DNA from: Conexivisphaerales archaeon
Lineage (GTDB): Archaea > Thermoproteota > Nitrososphaeria > Conexivisphaerales > DTJL01
Direction of reading: 5' to 3'
DNA: 12,708 nucleotides
NCBI GenBank assembly: GCA_049509455.1
Contig: JBEKZX010000044.1
Coordinates: forward strand, 1-12,708
The notes under the pieces are model-generated. The model did no database searches. It was not told the DNA's origin and was given only the letters and a program-made list of their open reading frames with translations. Positions 1-7,306 of the stretch are shown here, one piece after another. The position numbers and the translations under genes are program-made. Each line of letters begins with the position of its first letter. Positions within the stretch are counted from its first letter, which is position 1.

Positions 1-494
1 ACGAGCTCGTTCCTTCGAAGACCCGTCTTCGCCAGGAGGACGAGGACGGCCCTGTCCCGCGGGTTCAAAACCGAACCGATCAAGCGGGACATCTCCTCCA
101 CGGAGATGAGCTTCCTCGGCGGGTCGTCCTGGTCGTCCTCCTTGTACTCCCTCAGGAAGCGCTTCCTCACCGCTAGGACGGGGTTCCCCGGGACGTAGCC
201 CTCGAAGGAGAGGAAGCCGTAGAAGGTGGAGAGGGCCGTGAAGTTGTGATCAAGCGTCTTGTGATCCAGGCCCAGCCCCCTGCGGTAGTGGAGGTACTCC
301 CTGAAGACGAACCGGTCGGCGTCGAAGGGATGGAGCCCCTTCTTTGAGAGGAACTCCAGGAAGTCCTTCACGGTGTGCCTGTATCCGACGATCGTCGAGT
401 CGGCGAGGTTCCTGTCCTTGCAGTCCTGGATGAAGCCCTCCAGGAGCTTCGAAAGGTCGACCCTCTTCTTTACGCCGGACTCCTCCTGGGTCAA
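1..494 (-). CDS. Tyrosine recombinase/integrase (XerC/D-like), N-terminal 164 aa; runs off the left edge of the window
   Basis: Not in the ORF track. Manual translation from TTG at 494: MTQEESGVKKRVDLSKLLEGFIQDCKDRNLADSTIVGYRHTVKDFLEFL...NPVLAVRKRFLREYKEDDQDDPPRKLISVEEMSRLIGSVLNPRDRAVLVLLAKTGLRRNEL. This gives a SAM-like core-binding domain followed by the RDRA..LL..TGLR..EL box carrying the first catalytic Arg. The start overlaps the upstream stop (TTGA, 491-494). Confidence 0.93.
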   Translation of the reverse strand, partial: MTQEESGVKKRVDLSKLLEGFIQDCKDRNLADSTIVGYRHTVKDFLEFLSKKGLHPFDADRFVFREYLHYRRGLGLDHKTLDHNFTALSTFYGFLSFEGYVPGNPVLAVRKRFLREYKEDDQDDPPRKLISVEEMSRLIGSVLNPRDRAVLVLLAKTGLRRNEL

Positions 495-1018
495 TCCCTC
501 CACCTCCAGCCTCTCGCCGTGGCCTCCAGGAGGCCGTAAGCCTCCAGCCCCGCCAGCTGGGCGTCGATCGCTTTGACGGTACCAGTCTCCCTGGGGTCAA
601 TCCCCAGCTTCTGGAGGAGGCGGTCGCTGTCGATGATGCCCTCCCTCTTGAATAGCTCTACGAGGCTCCGGTCATACGAACGGATTCCCTGGAACCCAAC
701 CTGCCCGAAAGGCTGGAGCCTGTAGCTCCTCAGCTCCTTGTCGAGGCGCTCCGCCAGCTCCTTCATCAGCTTGTCCTCCCGCTGGAGCTTGGAGATCTCC
801 TCGTCCTTCTCCCTCAGGAGCTTTACGAGATCCGCCCGAGACTTGTACTCCGCCCCTTCCTCCTCCTGCTTCAAGGAGTTCTCCACGTGCTCCGATACGA
901 ACTTGGAGATGGTCCTCCCCGACTTGTCTGCCAGCCCCTTCCACCGTTCGGCCATGCCGACCGAAGGCAGGTAGACGTAGATGGCCCTCTCTTTCAGCTC
1001 ATTTTTGTCGACGACCAA
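491..1018 (-). CDS. Putative DNA-binding protein: N-terminal ribbon-helix-helix, central coiled coil, C-terminal winged-helix-like domain
   Basis: 175 aa from TTG. Beta strand AIYVYLP followed by helices MAERWKGLADKSG and TISKFVSEHVENSL (RHH/CopG pattern). Heptad-rich middle (LVKLLREKDEEISKLQREDKLMKELAERLDKEL). C-terminus QLAGLEAYGLLEATARGWRW resembles a helix plus wing. Confidence 0.7.
   Translation of the reverse strand: MVVDKNELKERAIYVYLPSVGMAERWKGLADKSGRTISKFVSEHVENSLKQEEEGAEYKSRADLVKLLREKDEEISKLQREDKLMKELAERLDKELRSYRLQPFGQVGFQGIRSYDRSLVELFKREGIIDSDRLLQKLGIDPRETGTVKAIDAQLAGLEAYGLLEATARGWRWRD
501..507 (-). promoter_or_regulatory. Shine-Dalgarno site for the integrase
   Basis: GGAGGTG on the minus strand, 6 nt before the TTG at 494. 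Confidence 0.75.
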
Positions 1019-1068
1019 GTTACACGCAGCCCCAGTATGGAGGTGGCCATAGATAAGGCTATACTAGT

Positions 1069-1072
1069 AAAA
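1069..1072 (-). terminator. Oligo-T terminator of tRNA-Ser
   Basis: TTTT immediately after the encoded CCA on the minus strand. Confidence 0.5.
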
Positions 1073-1198
1073 TGGCGCCGGGAGAGGGATTCGAACCCTC
1101 GCGGCCCATGAAGGGCCACGGGCTCTCATTCCGACCGGCGGAAGGAGCTCCGCCTTCGGCCTCAAGGCCCGCGCGTTAATCCACTTCGCTACCCCGGC
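1073..1198 (-). tRNA. tRNA-Ser(UGA) with a 36-nt intron at canonical 37/38 (exon 1 1198-1161, intron 1160-1125, exon 2 1124-1073); CCA encoded
   Basis: Acceptor GCCGGGG/TCCCGGC with discriminator G73 then CCA. Anticodon stem CGGGC/GCCCG with spliced loop CT-TGA-GA. Long variable arm GGCCC-TTCAT-GGGCC. T arm GAGGG-TTCGAAT-CCCTC. The intron inner helix CCGA/TCGG starts exactly where 37/38 BHB geometry predicts. Confidence 0.93.
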
Positions 1199-1233
1199 GA
1201 GAACAGACCTTGTAAGCAAAGCGCGCGGTTTCC

Positions 1234-1248
1234 TTTAAAACGTTTCCC
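1234..1248 (-). promoter_or_regulatory. BRE/TATA of tRNA-Ser
   Basis: Minus strand GGGAAACG-TTTTAAA, about 36-42 nt upstream of the mature tRNA 5' end. Confidence 0.65.
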
Positions 1249-1264
1249 GATCGCCCATTCCAAC

Positions 1265-1271
1265 TTTTTAA
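1265..1271 (+). promoter_or_regulatory. TATA box for archease (divergent from tRNA-Ser)
   Basis: TTTTTAA upstream of the ORF. The spacing fits TTG at 1312 better than ATG at 1288. Confidence 0.5.
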
Positions 1272-1287
1272 GGGCTTAAGTCCAGCC

Positions 1288-1758
1288 ATGTGTAAGGGTA
1301 AGCTGAGGCTCTTGCGGACCGGGAAGTCTTTCAGGAAATTCCGTCTTCTGGACTACATGTCCGACGCCCTCGTCCAGAGCTACGGCCGGACCCTGGAGGA
1401 CGCCTTCTCCAACGCCGCATCGGCGATGACCGCTGTGATGGTCGACCTGCGCAGGGTCTCCCCCGCTCCACTGACGAGGGAGGTCGTCGCAGAGGGTTTC
1501 GACGAAGAAAGCCTTCTCTACAACTGGCTGGAGGCGGTCCTCGTTAAGAAGGACATAGACCAGGAGATCTTCAGGTCGTCACATGTAAGGATCAAGACAA
1601 CACCCAAGGGCCTCTCCCTTCGAGGCACCCTCCACGGTGAAGCCGTGGACGCGAAACGCCACGTGTTCAAGCGCGACGTCAAGGCCATCACCTACCACGA
1701 AATGTCAATCACGAGGAAGGACGGGAGATACACCCTCAGGTTCCTCCTGGACCTCTGA
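1288..1758 (+). CDS. Archease (RtcB tRNA ligase cofactor); start may be TTG at 1312
   Basis: F.LLDYMSDALVQSYG.TLEDAF.NAA, LLYNWLE, DVKAITYHEM and the C-terminal ...LLDL match the archease family pattern. Confidence 0.92.
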   Translation: MCKGKLRLLRTGKSFRKFRLLDYMSDALVQSYGRTLEDAFSNAASAMTAVMVDLRRVSPAPLTREVVAEGFDEESLLYNWLEAVLVKKDIDQEIFRSSHVRIKTTPKGLSLRGTLHGEAVDAKRHVFKRDVKAITYHEMSITRKDGRYTLRFLLDL

Positions 1759-1874
1759 CATAGGGGCAGGGGAGATCGAGCCAGCCTGCCAGCCGGACAA
1801 CTACTTTTCAGCCGCGGGTCGACTTAATTGACGCTATCCCTATTTCTTCCCGGGAGGCACTCTCCGGCATCGGG

Positions 1875-2246
1875 ATGAGCGACAAGCCCGAGCCGGGCGA
1901 CGACCTCATGTCGATGAGCACAATCTCCAAATACGCTAAGATGATCGAAGACCTACGCTCCGGTCTGGACCCGGAGATCATCAAGACATGGTACGAGAAG
2001 GTCGAGCATGACGCCCGTGAGCTGGCCCCCGCGAACGTGAAGGACACGATCGATGTCATACAGGACGACCTCCTCCCCATGAAGTACAACTTCAAGGCTT
2101 CCAAACGCGCGGTCCCATTCGTCGTGGAGGCCATCGAGAAGAACCTCCAGGGGATGCCCTTCGCCACCAAGCTCTACTTCCAGAAGGTTGAGGAGTCCAT
2201 CTGGGAGGAGTACGAGCGATACATCAAGCAGACCCCGACGCCATAG
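1875..2246 (+). CDS. Conserved hypothetical protein, 123 aa, helical
   Basis: Codon usage like neighbouring core genes. The PMKYNFKASKRAVPFVVEAIE...MPFATKLYFQK segment resembles small hypotheticals I recall from Nitrososphaerota (from memory, unverified). Real start could be M12 or M14. Confidence 0.75.
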   Translation: MSDKPEPGDDLMSMSTISKYAKMIEDLRSGLDPEIIKTWYEKVEHDARELAPANVKDTIDVIQDDLLPMKYNFKASKRAVPFVVEAIEKNLQGMPFATKLYFQKVEESIWEEYERYIKQTPTP

Positions 2247-2256
2247 CCCAGTTACC

Positions 2257-2263
2257 TTTTATA
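2257..2263 (+). promoter_or_regulatory. TATA box for the aminopeptidase gene
   Basis: TTTTATA. With AAGGTG at 2298-2303 it supports ATG 2314 as the start. Confidence 0.55.
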
Positions 2264-2313
2264 GCCGTCTCATGGATTCTCAAGACATCGTCATCCAAAG
2301 GTGCCTGCATAAC

Positions 2314-4827
2314 ATGGATTCATATTATGGTGAAAAGTGCGCCAGTTCCGCCCTGAAGTCCTTCGTTACTCCCTTCTCCAAGCCGCACTTCACGCCTGAC
2401 CGGCCTCTGAACCTCGAACACATCGTCTTGAACGTGGTCCCCGATTTCGAGCAGCAGAGCATCGAGTGCACCGCGACCCTCAGCCTCAAGGCCCTCGCCG
2501 ACAGGGTGGAATCGGTCTGCCTCGACATGGCGGACCTCAAGGTGAAGTCGATAAGCCTGAAGGACAAGGGGCTCCTGCTCTTTCACAGCGAGGACGGCAA
2601 GGTCGTGGCCCAGCTCCCAGACGAAGTGTCTTACGGCTCAACGATCGAAATCGCCGTGGAATACGCCGGAAAGCCACGGAAGGGCCTGTACTTCAGGAAG
2701 CCCGACAAGGACTACCCCAGCAGGCCCGTCCAACTCTGGACGCAGGGGGAGGACGAAGACAGCCATTATTGGTTCCCTTGCATAGACACGCCCGCACAGA
2801 AGGCCACAAGCGAAGTCCTGGCCACCGTCCCGGCGAGCTTCACCGTCATCTCCAACGGCAAGCTGGCTGAAGTGAAGGAGGACGCCGCCAAGGGTCTGAA
2901 GACCTACCACTATGTCCAGGACAAGCCTCATTCCATTTACCTGATCACCCTCGTGGCCGGCGAATTCGTGGAGCTGAAGGATGAGGCGAACGGAATCCCG
3001 CTCCTCTACTACGTACCCAAGGGTAGAGAAGATGATGCCAAGCGCAGCTTCTCGGAAACCCCCAAGATGGTGGAGTTTTTAGCCGAGAAGACGGGGATGC
3101 CCTATCCCTGGGACAAGTATGCGCAGACCTGCGTCAGTGAATACATCTTCGGGGGGATGGAGAACACCTCCGCCACAACGCTGACAGACACGACGTTGCA
3201 CGACGAAAGAGCCCATCTAGACTTCTCGAGCGTGCCTCTTGTTTCGCACGAGCTGGCTCATATGTGGTTCGGCGACCTCCTCACCTGCCGGTACTGGAAG
3301 CATGCATGGCTCAACGAGGGGTTCGCGACCTTTTGCGAGGCCCTGTACACGCAGTTCAGCAAGGGGGACGACGAATACCTGTTCGAGATGCTCCAGAACC
3401 AGGACATCTACCTCGGCGAACTGGACCGCTACGCGCGCCCGATAGTCACAAACGTCTTCGAGACGGCCTCAGAGCTCTTCGACAGGCACCTCTACGAGAA
3501 GGGCTCCGTCGTGCTTCATATGCTTAGGTCGATGGTGGGTCAGGAGACCTTCTGGCGAGGCATCCAACTCTATGTCAAGGACAACGCTTTCAAGAACGTG
3601 GAGACCTCCGATCTGAGGGCCGCTTTCGAGAAGGCTTCCGGGATAAACCTGGACGCCTTCTTCGCCCAGTGGACGGGTCGGCCCGGTCACCCCGACCTGT
3701 CTGTGAATTATGAATCCAAGGCTGAAGACGTGGCCGTACTGAGGGTCGTCCAGAAGCAGGCTGAGGACGCATTCAACTTTAGGTTGAGGGTCAAGGTCCA
3801 ATATCAGGGCTCCGCGGAGGAGACCTGCAGCGACATCACCTCCAAGGACCAGAGCATAGCCCTGCATTTGGCCAGGAGGCCGCTCTACGTCTCTGTGGAC
3901 CCCAAGTTCGAGGTCCTGAAGACCATCGAATATGTCCGGCCGAGGGAGATGATGCTGGCCCAGTTGTCGTCCGACACCGTGCCTGGTCGGATACAGGCCG
4001 CGAAGGGTCTGGCGAAGGATGCCTCGCCTGACGCGGTGGAAGCTCTCAGGAAGGCCCTGGGCAGCGACCCCTTCTGGGGTGTGCAGGCTGAGGCAGCAAA
4101 GGCGTTGGGTGAAGTCGGGAACGAGTCCTCCCTTAAGGCTCTAATCGGAAGCCTTTCCGTCAGCCATCCTAAGGTGAGGCGGGCAGTGGTCTCCGCCCTC
4201 GGACAGTTCAAGAAGGAGGAGGCAGCCGACGCGTTGATCTCTCTCTTCGCAAAGGGAGACCCGAGCTACTTTGTTGAGGCCGAATGCCTGCGCAGCATCG
4301 GAAAGACGAAGTCGGAGAAGGCATATGAGTTCATCGTTAAGGGGATGGAGAGGCCGTCATGGCAGGAGGTCGTCAAGATCGGTGGGGTCGACGGCCTGGG
4401 CAGCCTCGGCGACCCGAAGGCCGTTCCCGTGTTGCTAGAGAAGGTCAAGCTGGGGAATCACCTTCGCGTGAGGGAGTTTTCCACTGTCGCCCTGGGCAAG
4501 GTCGGAAGGGATAACGTCGAAGTCATCGGTCGGCTCACGGACCTACTAAGCGACTACTGGTTCAGGGTCAGGGGTTCCGCGGCGTCTGCGCTGGCAGAGC
4601 TGAAGGCCACCGATGCAATGCCGGCCCTTACTAAGGCAGCCGAGAAAGAGCTGGACGGAAGGGTGAGGCGTTTGATGCGAGAATCGATTATCCGGCTGAG
4701 GGCGAGCAGGACGCCGGATGACGAGCTCAAGCGCGTCTCGGATGACCTTGACAAGCTTCGAGAGGAGAACCGCCTCCTCAAGGAACGCGTTGATCGGCTA
4801 GAGCTGGCAGGAAAGCAGAAGGGTTAG
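2314..4827 (+). CDS. pepN: M1-family Zn aminopeptidase (PepN-like) with C-terminal HEAT/PBS-lyase-like repeats and a terminal coiled coil; about 837 aa
   Basis: GGMEN exopeptidase motif, HELAH-x18-E zinc motif (HELAHMWFGDLLTCRYWKHAWLNE), catalytic Tyr in HLYEKG, and repeated VRxxAAxALG units. The ORF-track start at 2188 overlaps the upstream gene and precedes the TATA box, so ATG 2314 is preferred. Confidence 0.93.
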   Translation: MDSYYGEKCASSALKSFVTPFSKPHFTPDRPLNLEHIVLNVVPDFEQQSIECTATLSLKALADRVESVCLDMADLKVKSISLKDKGLLLFHSEDGKVVAQLPDEVSYGSTIEIAVEYAGKPRKGLYFRKPDKDYPSRPVQLWTQGEDEDSHYWFPCIDTPAQKATSEVLATVPASFTVISNGKLAEVKEDAAKGLKTYHYVQDKPHSIYLITLVAGEFVELKDEANGIPLLYYVPKGREDDAKRSFSETPKMVEFLAEKTGMPYPWDKYAQTCVSEYIFGGMENTSATTLTDTTLHDERAHLDFSSVPLVSHELAHMWFGDLLTCRYWKHAWLNEGFATFCEALYTQFSKGDDEYLFEMLQNQDIYLGELDRYARPIVTNVFETASELFDRHLYEKGSVVLHMLRSMVGQETFWRGIQLYVKDNAFKNVETSDLRAAFEKASGINLDAFFAQWTGRPGHPDLSVNYESKAEDVAVLRVVQKQAEDAFNFRLRVKVQYQGSAEETCSDITSKDQSIALHLARRPLYVSVDPKFEVLKTIEYVRPREMMLAQLSSDTVPGRIQAAKGLAKDASPDAVEALRKALGSDPFWGVQAEAAKALGEVGNESSLKALIGSLSVSHPKVRRAVVSALGQFKKEEAADALISLFAKGDPSYFVEAECLRSIGKTKSEKAYEFIVKGMERPSWQEVVKIGGVDGLGSLGDPKAVPVLLEKVKLGNHLRVREFSTVALGKVGRDNVEVIGRLTDLLSDYWFRVRGSAASALAELKATDAMPALTKAAEKELDGRVRRLMRESIIRLRASRTPDDELKRVSDDLDKLREENRLLKERVDRLELAGKQKG

Positions 4828-4834
4828 AGGCGCG

Positions 4835-4859
4835 GATGCCGTCGGCGGTCAACGGCATC
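4835..4859 (+). terminator. Stem-loop just after the pepN stop (possible terminator or mRNA-stabilising hairpin)
   Basis: GATGCCGT (4835-4842) / ACGGCATC (4852-4859), a perfect 8-bp inverted repeat 7 nt after the stop, with no clear U tract. Confidence 0.4.
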
Positions 4860-5181
4860 TATGCTCTGAGCGGTTAGACGTGTCCATGACCAAAGAATAT
4901 CGTAAAGTTAGCACCTACCGGACACTGTTGTTGAGCGTCATCAGGAGGGCTCTACGGTTCAGAATGCACAAACAATTCGCACGCACGTCATTCCACTCCG
5001 CTAATCAGAGGCCTACGTGAAGGTCGAACCCATTCGAGAGGGCGTTGTCGACGGTCAAAGCTTTGTTCAGTACAGCCAAATTGGTCCAGAAGGCGAGGAA
5101 ATGGTTTAGCGCATCTCCACAGAACCTCTGAAGCGGGTGCCCCAATGGACCTAAATACTCATACAGTATAGAATCCATGGA

Positions 5182-5634
5182 GTGACGGCACTGAGAACTC
5201 CCATTGTTCTAGGAGCAATCGCAATCGCCATAGTTGCGGCAGCCGGTATAGTATCAATGGCAGGCCAGTCAGGCTCGAAGCCTGCATGTACATCAACAAG
5301 CACATCCTCCAAAGTGATGATCAATGTGGTGTCGGCAAAAATGGTCCAGCCGCTTACGGGAGCAGGTCCAACGGTCGAACTGACCCTCCAAAACCAATGG
5401 GGATGCCCTGTGACTAGCCTTTCAGCGATACTTGAGCTGTACAAGAATTACACCTACTATTTCAACGACGTGAATAGCTCACACCCGCTTGGCCAAGGAC
5501 AAACGGTCACAGCCAATCAAACCCTTTTTGAAGGCGAATTCGATTCCACGGTAAGTTATCCTCTCGTTATCGAAGGAACAATTCAAGACACATTATTCAC
5601 TGAGACGGTCATGATACAGATTCTTCCCGTATAA
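5182..5634 (+). CDS. Secreted or membrane-anchored beta-rich protein of unknown function, 150 aa
   Basis: Hydrophobic N-terminus (IVLGAIAIAIVAAAGIVSMA), S/T linker, two Cys and three N-glycosylation sequons (NYT, NSS, NQT). TAAATA at 5152-5157 suits a leaderless GTG start. Many A/T-ending codons, unlike the flanking genes. Confidence 0.75.
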   Translation: MTALRTPIVLGAIAIAIVAAAGIVSMAGQSGSKPACTSTSTSSKVMINVVSAKMVQPLTGAGPTVELTLQNQWGCPVTSLSAILELYKNYTYYFNDVNSSHPLGQGQTVTANQTLFEGEFDSTVSYPLVIEGTIQDTLFTETVMIQILPV

Positions 5635-5699
5635 GTTAACGGATAAGACGGGAGTTCACACGTGTGGAGCACAAGAAGAGGACAGAGGACGTAGGGTGA

Positions 5700-5763
5700 A
5701 AGCCCGGTGATGCGAAGGTATCACGCCGGGTTCGGGAGGTAGGGCGCGTGCTTCCTGCCCTAC
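5700..5763 (+). ncRNA. Group II intron domain V (5700-5733) plus domain VI-like hairpin ending in AC (5734-5763); orphan fragment
   Basis: 34-nt AAGCCCGGT-GATGC-GAAG-GTATC-AC-GCCGGGTTC with AGC triad, 9-position lower stem (first pair A.C, then A-U, G.U, five G-C/C-G pairs, U.G), AC bulge, 5-bp upper stem and tetraloop. It is followed by GGGAGGTAGGG...CCTGCCCTAC, typical of D6 and the 3' splice site. Confidence 0.82.
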
Positions 5764-6144
5764 GTTTTGGACGGGCTTCGGCCTCCTTCAGATGATCAAC
5801 GGGATATGTGACTTCGTCGAGCTTCGTCGTAGGCATCCTTTGGACGCTGGTGTCGTCGACTCCGCCGACCAGCGAGTCCCCTCCTGTTAAAGGCCTCAGG
5901 AGAAGATGGGCCTAGTGCCGCCTCGATGGACGCTCTGAAATGGCCGGTATCTCAAGAACAAGTGATGGCCACCGAAGATCCATTGGTGGTCAAAGGCGCC
6001 GCGAGACAAGCCGTTCTGGAGGGTAAAACACGCATAACACTTGAGTTACTCAAACAATCGACGTTCGGCACTCAGCGCCATGTTCTAAACGCAATCCCGA
6101 ATCTCGTTACGTCATAGGCACAGAATCTATACATTGAAGAAGGG

Positions 6145-6179
6145 TTTGGCCGAATTGAAGCTCACTTTGGCCGATTGAA
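6145..6179. repeat. Tandem direct repeat TTTGGCCGA(A)TTGAA x2, 21-bp period
   Basis: 6145-6159 TTTGGCCGAATTGAA and 6166-6179 TTTGGCCGATTGAA, with a partial third ATTGAA at 6133-6138. Confidence 0.85.
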
Positions 6180-6249
6180 AAATACTTTAACCATCGACAG
6201 GCGTCTACCCTCTCTGCCCGAGAGTCTCTCTCTGTGCGATGAAATGATA

Positions 6250-6390
6250 TGGGGCCGGCCGGATTTGAACCGGCGATCTCTAGCGCCCTTGGCCTCGCAC
6301 GGCGGCAGCCGCGCGATCAGGCTAGTATCCTAGTCCAAGCTATCCACCGAACAATTCGAAAGCACTGGTTCGGCTCTGGACGACGGCCCC
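6250..6390 (-). tRNA. tRNA-Pro(GGG) with two non-canonical introns: 36 nt at 15/16 (6375-6340) and 29 nt at 34/35 (6317-6289); CCA not encoded
   Basis: Joining exons 6390-6376, 6339-6318 and 6288-6250 gives a 76-nt cloverleaf: GGGGCCG TC GTCC AGCTTGGACTA GGAT A CTAGC CT-GGG-GC GCTAG AGATC GCCGG TTCAAAT CCGGC CGGCCCC A. Both junctions form BHB-like motifs. Confidence 0.88.
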
Positions 6391-6421
6391 ACACTCACTC
6401 GAAAGGCTCGAAGCTCTGTTC

Positions 6422-6428
6422 TATATAT
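6422..6428 (-). promoter_or_regulatory. TATA box of tRNA-Pro
   Basis: ATATATA on the minus strand, 32-38 nt upstream of the mature 5' end. Confidence 0.6.
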
Positions 6429-6526
6429 GTATTGGAAGGAGGCGCCCTCATCGCCGCCTTCCTGACTCAGGGTCAAGTAGATACTCACCCCTTCATGCGC
6501 GATGACCTCGTCATAGAGCGCCTAGC

Positions 6527-7306
6527 TCACGGACGCTCTGCCAGCTTCATCGACCGCAGAATCGTCCGATATGAATCATCATCAGGAGATCTCCTGTAAG
6601 CCCTCAACGCGGCCAGCACTTCCTCTCGTTCCGCTCCCAACCTGGACAAGACGATGGGGCCATATGGCCTTGATAACGTCAGGTACTGAAGGAGGTCGTT
6701 GACGTTCCTCCTCCTCCCGCCTGTTGCCGCGGTCTCGAAATCCAGCACACGCGCTCGGCCGTCCAGCTGAATTATGACGTGGCGGCGTGGGTCCGAGAGC
6801 TCCTTGTGGTCGACACCGGCGACGTCCAGGAGGCGGGCCAGCCCGCAGATGTCGGTCAGGATGCTCCTGAAAGCGCCGTCGGCAAGGTCCTTCGACCCTT
6901 TCAACCAGTCGACTAGATTGTTGCCCACCAGTTCCTCCATCACGATGAAATCTCGTGACGCGGCGAACAGGACAGGTCCTATCTTCGACCTGTTCGATTC
7001 CTTGAGGATCTCCCCCTCTCTTTCTAGGCTTTCTCTGTCCGCGTCCGTCCGCCTGATTTTCAAAGCAGCCCTCTTCCCCTTCCAGAGGCATTCGACCACC
7101 ACTCCCACATGTCCCTTGCCGAGCACCTTGAGGCCACCGACCTCGATACTTCCGACGAAGACCAGAGCCTCCACTCCCATTTCCTTAAGAGAGATAATGC
7201 GCCGCTGAGCTTCAGACTGCGAGCCCGAAGGGTAGCAGAGCACACTCACGAAGGGAGGAACGCAGAGCCCGTCGACGTCCACCTTCCTAGAAACGGAAGC
7301 CGGCAA
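6527..7306 (-). CDS. Atypical RIO-like / predicted Ser/Thr protein kinase (COG2112-type)
   Basis: Gly loop LGKGHVGVV, ALKIRR lysine, catalytic-loop-like HKELS, and DFE. Start is TTG 7306 or GTG 7282. Confidence 0.85.
   Translation of the reverse strand: MPASVSRKVDVDGLCVPPFVSVLCYPSGSQSEAQRRIISLKEMGVEALVFVGSIEVGGLKVLGKGHVGVVVECLWKGKRAALKIRRTDADRESLEREGEILKESNRSKIGPVLFAASRDFIVMEELVGNNLVDWLKGSKDLADGAFRSILTDICGLARLLDVAGVDHKELSDPRRHVIIQLDGRARVLDFETAATGGRRRNVNDLLQYLTLSRPYGPIVLSRLGAEREEVLAALRAYRRSPDDDSYRTILRSMKLAERP

Follow-up and report, generated by a model that had tools for sequence, protein, structure and literature searches.

An internal piece of a group II intron, probably without function, in a tRNA-adjacent islet of a Conexivisphaerales archaeon

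The window analyzed in this study is a stretch of 12,708 nucleotides (contig JBEKZX010000044.1, assembly GCA_049509455.1) from a Conexivisphaerales archaeon, the genome of which is a metagenome-assembled genome (MAG) of 2.05 Mb in 140 contigs with a completeness of 95.5%. Genes for archease, the archaeal CCA-adding enzyme, Alba, and tRNAs with inserts mark the host as archaeal. From an M1 peptidase gene to a tRNA gene extends a private islet of 1.3 kb (positions 4915–6226), which holds an open reading frame called ORF150, a piece of a group II intron, a scrap of a gene for a transporter of the MFS family, and an ORF of 63 codons (ORF63). The flanks are collinear with the genomes of two congeners (window 1009–4914 and 6227–6439 with G004, and 1–4821 and 6247–6435 with G002), and in both of the congeners the unaligned sequence from the M1 peptidase gene to the tRNA amounts to only about 40 nt; the tRNA-linked islet proposed in the original prediction is thus real, namely an insert that is missing from G004 and G002. 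The tRNA gene bounding the islet (6250–6390, minus strand) has two introns and was matched by the Rfam tRNA model at 42.8 bits with two inserts. At gathering thresholds, the only Rfam matches in the window are two tRNAs with introns, and because of these introns, no tRNA was reported in the window by ARAGORN. A search for att-like repeats of the tRNA end at the opposite edge of the islet yielded nothing convincing. Also, tandem direct repeats of 21 nt (ATTGAAG...TTTGGCCGA, 76% alike) were noticed at 6133–6174, inside the tRNA-proximal edge of the islet.

ORF150 (5182–5634, plus strand) encodes a protein with an N-terminal membrane anchor and occupies the space where domains 1–4 (D1–D4) of an intron would be. 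Its product is 40% identical to residues ~25–170 of a 310-aa ORF in G039, a genome of the same class (E 2.7e-20), and ORF150 is hence a real coding sequence; no match was obtained in Pfam or NCBIfam, and no relative was found among the viral contigs searched. ORF63 and the other small ORFs of the islet had no family match, either. The MFS scrap (5771–5861, plus strand) is a pseudogene fragment corresponding to codons ~368–398 of 424, with 79% nucleotide identity to G004:C2:106693-106779 inside an intact MFS ORF of 424 aa. The homology begins sharply at 5771 and was split by tblastn into two frames, 5771–5815 and 5814–5861, with the frameshift near 5814–5816; what is left is a piece of 30 codons without the last ~26 codons of the gene and without its last transmembrane helix. 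The sole long MFS homologue in the genome, on contig C69, is 50% identical and represents a different, uninterrupted paralogue. By the MFS gene of G004, furthermore, we noticed an element of ~85–100 nt (L168, G004:C2:106379-106475) matching six contigs of the genome studied here at 78–89%, probably a dispersed repeat of the MITE-like kind; in the regions around it, short matches to many contigs form a mosaic.

Between ORF150 and the MFS scrap, the plus strand at 5700–5733 reads AAGCCCGGU-GAUGC-GAAG-GUAUC-AC-GCCGGGUUC and has the exact 34-nt architecture of domain V (D5) of a group II intron. It folds, as had been described in the original prediction, into a 9-bp lower stem containing the AGC triad with a G.U pair at the triad G, a 2-nt AC bulge, and a 5-bp upper stem closed by a GAAG loop, in which 13 of the 14 pairs are formed and the first one is replaced with A.C. 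Comparison with the canonical D5 reproduced both the identity at 20 of 34 positions and the double compensatory changes in five stem pairs (counted by hand). Metagenomes were scanned with a pattern for the D5 stem that put no constraint on the 8 nt at the apex (the tetraloop plus the two pairs closing it), and 44 loci were returned. The two deviations pointed out earlier, the A.C pair and the GAAG loop, turned out to lie at sites that are invariant in all of the 42 related metagenome D5s, where position 1 is G and the loop is GAAA; only the window and two copies from the same population have A and GAAG. These changes, which are derived in the window, have thus broken the first pair and abolished the GNRA loop. 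The GNRA loop is what docks D5 onto D1.

As for the Rfam search that had been proposed, the model of D5–D6 (RF00029, Intron_gpII) matched 5698–5763 on the plus strand at 37.7 bits, with E 2.6e-5 when all Rfam families were searched over 2 kb and E 6.2e-6 in a search of the whole genome; the score is just below the gathering cut-off of 40 bits, and the match does not belong to the family by score. This shortfall is due to the truncation of D6; complete D5–D6 units of the relatives described below reach 56–64 bits. A covariance model built from the nearest relatives (R1) scored the window at 51.1 bits (E 1e-10). The hairpin at 5700–5733 is therefore a true group II intron D5, and the match is beyond chance.

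The stretch 5670–5765 was found by blastn to be 80–91% identical to sediment metagenome contigs (L145, L125, L110, L126, L112, L118, L120, L152, and others). The identity to introns encoding a reverse transcriptase (RT) spans 54–89 nt and goes beyond D5 on both sides. In L145, an ORF upstream of D5 encodes a protein of 597 aa with RVT_1, GIIM, and HNH domains and ends 34 nt before D5; its homologues in L125, L110, and L126 are 56–82% identical, and the closest solved structure for this RT-maturase-HNH protein is that of the T.el4h IIB maturase (6me0). D6 of the relatives is ~60 nt long and consists of a 14-bp basal helix with a hairpin at its apex; it contains a bulged A and ends in ...CUAC. 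Rfam models of D1–D4 gave no match to the sediment relatives at E<=0.01. This homology to RT-encoding introns, of which only a part is present at our locus, means that the piece in the window derives from the 3′ region of a mobile intron lineage. The genes flanking the relatives are those of sugar metabolism and IS110, some of the proteins being 58–62% identical to those of genes here. In L110, L142, L120, and L122, the intron is directly followed by the C-terminal domain (Transposase_20) of a transposase of the IS110 family, and judging from such positions, this intron lineage seems to home into IS110 elements.

Two further metagenome contigs, L140 and L133, represent the same locus as the window with 99.7–99.9% identity over 1 kb; the arrangement is hence not an assembly artefact. 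All four differences between the window and these copies (one in L140 and three within 11 nt in L133) are located at 5674 and 5769–5779, that is, inside the intron piece and the MFS scrap, and none is in the remaining ~0.9 kb of either alignment of ~1 kb. No DNA match to 5698–5765 was detected among 40 relatives of the archaeon, nor was any conserved homolog found at the syntenic sites of G004 and G002, and the R1 model had no match in 150 other genomes of the class under strict filters. The check in related genomes that had been called for therefore describes an element that is present in a single lineage with no syntenic conservation.

The intron has been reduced to about 100 nt, which run from the end of D4 through D5 into D6, where the 5′ strand and the apical part survive. 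On the left, the homology begins at 5670, and 5670–5697 (plus strand) corresponds to the 3′-side remnant of D4 and the D4–D5 linker. In blastn, 5670–5755 matched L145 3730–3817 (82%) and L125 (80%), and the counterpart of 5670 in L145 is the first base past the stop codon of RT; further upstream, 5640–5669 is about 40% identical to the relatives by eye, which is near random. On the right, 5734–5770 (plus strand) aligns with the D5–D6 linker of the relatives and then with D6, from the 5′ strand into the apical hairpin, where D6 is cut off. Only 7 of the 14 basal pairs and 4 of the 7 apical pairs are kept, whereas six relatives have 13–14 of 14 and 7 of 7, respectively. Neither the 3′ strand of D6 nor the branch-point A nor the 3′ splice site is present, the last ~30 nt of the intron being gone, and the positions for the branch A in the R1 model are deleted in its alignment of the window.

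Rfam instead draws a short D6 (GUAGGGC/GCCCUAC), which has no bulged A and carries G at the branch position. This was rejected as the real D6, since the alignment of the relatives shows that D6 is truncated within the apical hairpin; GUAGGGC/GCCCUAC is hence a fortuitous pairing of homologous 5′-side pieces. We also considered the boundary 5763/5764 as a 3′ splice site, given that CCCUAC is identical to the 3′ end of L112, but the letters fit better to the 5′ strand of the apical stem in the relatives (UGCCCGAC/UGCCCAAG; 14 of 18 versus 10 of 18, by eye) and are not preceded by a bulged A. A microhomology deletion that kept a splice site at 5763/5764 would be a less likely account. The junction at 5770/5771, nonetheless, appears from these alignments to be an illegitimate join with no 3′ splice site. 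In terms of the phrase “intron 3′ end” in the original prediction, therefore, the remnant nature stands, but the piece is not strictly a 3′ end because the last ~30 nt is missing.

The other parts of an intron were then looked for. No model of D1–D4 matched 4700–6700 at E<=10 or the whole window in the all-family Rfam search, and four of the models (RF02005, RF01998, RF02001, and RF01999) gave nothing above noise in the genome; RF02003, RF02004, and RF02012 were covered by the all-family scans of the window and had no match there. An RVT_1 domain was found nowhere in the genome, the RT (intron-encoded protein) of the relatives left no trace by tblastn, and the L145 intron had no other match by blastn. 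Searches by Rfam, protein domains, and tblastn thus agree with the earlier statement that neither an RT ORF nor D1–D4 is recognizable on either side of D5, and neither D1–D4 with a 5′ GUGYG end nor an intron-encoded RT/maturase is seen in this 95.5%-complete MAG. Multi-copy mobile elements often fail to assemble, and a full-length intron or RT could be hidden in the assembly gaps.

In the same genome, a second orphan D5–D6 unit was found at C62:5060-5155 (1501–1596 of the extracted locus L001) with an RF00029 score of 55.9 bits. Its D5 is different in sequence from that in the window and has the canonical GAAA loop, and G is present at the expected branch position. The unit sits in the ~330 nt that separate a GNAT gene from a gene for Alba, is private to this genome, and has flanks that lie on separate contigs of G004 (C7 and C3), the breakpoints being the start of D5 and ~19 nt past the end of D6; this relic hence marks a synteny breakpoint. 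Two relics from two intron lineages, both private and both at junctions, are what a history of invasion and then purge would leave and would not be expected of a conserved gene for a small RNA. Just past D6 of the second unit, at 1609–1639 of L001 (C62 ~5168–5198), a sequence of ~30 nt recurs in at least four other places in G004 with 93–96% identity and looks like a short dispersed repeat.

Other group II introns were noticed in the course of the searches. A genome of the same order (G026) has a compact intron on contig C12 (L005 1501–2239) with a D1D4-6 match at 58.9 bits and, ~375 nt downstream, a D5–D6 match at 43.5 bits; it is apparently ORF-less, and D5–D6 units near-identical to its own are present in G018 and G035. 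Also, the lower D5 stem AGCCCGGUG/CACGCCGGGUUC is common to many introns of Actinomycetota, Ktedonobacteria, and other bacteria (L013–L092), in which the two halves are separated by 13 but not 12 nt, making a 35-nt D5. A scan of genome contigs with the pattern containing 13 N returned at least 96 bacterial 35-nt D5s, mostly in Actinomycetota.

Taken together, we consider, with a probability of about 0.88, that 5670–5770 is an internal piece of a group II intron that no longer functions and that comprises the end of D4, D5, and the first two thirds or so of D6. The parent would belong to a lineage whose RT-maturase-HNH protein is nearest to the chloroplast-like/IIB type, and this intron, or DNA bearing it, would have entered the lineage of the archaeon. 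D1–D4, the gene for RT, and the end of D6 on the 3′ side would then have been lost through deletions and illegitimate joins, so that the remainder now has a small unrelated ORF on one side and the frameshifted MFS scrap on the other, in a 1.3-kb patchwork insert by a tRNA gene; we infer this order of events, as well as the lack of function. The fragment may be passively co-transcribed with ORF150. Of the two options left by the original prediction, a decayed intron agrees with the truncation on both sides, the mutations, the non-splice junction, and the absence from the congeners, while nothing was found for a retained RNA.

The hairpin might instead have been exapted, with the D5 stem and TTTT at 5765–5768 serving as a 3′-end or termination/stability element of the ORF150 mRNA. 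D5 is located 66 nt downstream of the stop codon of ORF150 on the same strand, and a strong hairpin followed by four T would suit such a role. Archaeal termination uses oligo-T tracts. The T's are only four, however, the fold of 5640–5800 is not unusually stable (z = −1.2), and the islet, being private to the species, provides no comparative support; we thus regard this role as unlikely. Even less probable would be a stand-alone D5(–D6) small RNA with a catalytic or regulatory role in trans. The architecture of D5 is largely intact, and with its triad, bulge, and 13 of 14 pairs retained, the hairpin alone would possibly be catalytically competent; furthermore, D5 supplied in trans works in vitro. 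Two orphan D5–D6 units in one genome devoid of RT could also be read as a pattern rather than as accidents, and both of them might be kept as structured RNAs, that is, a domesticated catalytic or protein-binding hairpin working in trans, with the truncation as trimming to a minimal core. We see very little chance of such domestication, because the two units differ in D5 sequence and stem from separate intron lineages, and both are private and positioned at rearrangement or insertion junctions. In the window, moreover, D5 has lost both the GNRA loop and its first pair through changes at sites invariant in the relatives, D6 is without its 3′ strand and branch A, and no D1–D3 partner was detected in the assembly with the four D1–D4 models.

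The direct adjacency of D5–D6 and the MFS fragment on the same strand could also suggest a split intron spliced in trans, of which the 3′ half would lie here with the MFS piece as the 3′ exon, while the 5′ exon with D1–D4 would be encoded elsewhere. The supposed exon is, however, a frameshifted piece of ~30 codons without the last transmembrane helix, and the junction at 5770/5771 falls inside the apical hairpin of D6 with no branch A, so neither an intact 3′ exon at a true splice site nor a partner 5′ half was found; the four D1–D4 models detected nothing in the genome, and the long MFS homologue on C69 is a different and uninterrupted paralogue. Trans-splicing is accordingly extremely improbable here. 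Equally negligible is a chance GC-rich hairpin unrelated to group II introns: while the Rfam score of 37.7 is under the cut-off of 40, the E values range from 1e-5 to 1e-10 and the identity to RT-encoding introns amounts to 80–91% over 54–89 nt.

The decayed fragment proposed here has well-known counterparts. Most copies of group II introns in prokaryotes are truncated or inactive and reside among other mobile DNA (Zimmerly & Semper 2015, PMC4424553), and fragmentation has been described as a route to inactivation of group II introns, by which fragments linger in the genome (Molina-Sanchez et al. 2015, PMC4496777). Like these truncated copies, ours is an RT-less ribozyme piece with inactivating mutations, confined to one lineage and situated in a variable region with mobile debris; it is different in that mainly the 5′ 95% was lost together with the last ~30 nt, so that an internal piece remains, and in that its archaeal host does not belong to the groups in which the introns of archaea are concentrated. 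Archaeal group II introns are known in Methanosarcinales and other Halobacterota, mostly of the CL1A type, and none was found in most other archaeal phyla (PMC8919778), whereas maturases have been described in a preprint from all archaeal supergroups including TACK (bioRxiv 10.1101/2024.12.10.627823). The introns of Methanosarcinales/Halobacterota share with our piece an archaeal host, the chloroplast-like type, low copy number, and association with mobile DNA, but are full-length and often active. Compared with the freshwater-sediment introns (L145, L125, L110, L126, L112, and L118), D5 is identical except for two positions, and the D4–D5 linker and the D6 5′ strand are 80–91% identical; those introns are nonetheless complete with an RT ORF and a full D6 of ~60 nt, several of them being within IS110 transposase genes. 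D5 acting in trans and the internal stem-loop of U6 snRNA resemble our hairpin in the triad, the 2-nt bulge, and the upper stem, but D5 in trans requires D1–D3 and the GNRA loop for binding, neither of which is available here. This kind of object is therefore already known, and our locus adds one more instance of an ordinary relic, not a new type of RNA.

In conclusion, a lone archaeal D5 of textbook appearance, which is tempting to regard as a free catalytic module, was revealed by its relatives to be debris, and the result is in this sense a clean negative. Matches to RF00029 below the threshold can thus be true but truncated, and sites adjacent to tRNA genes as well as rearrangement junctions are graveyards for pieces of mobile elements. 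If the reading as a domesticated RNA were nonetheless true, it would be a prokaryotic parallel to the U6 stem-loop. For this peat archaeon, the two relics speak of a past invasion by two lineages of group II introns and then of a complete loss of the retroelement machinery, which fits the picture of archaeal introns as being gained and purged.
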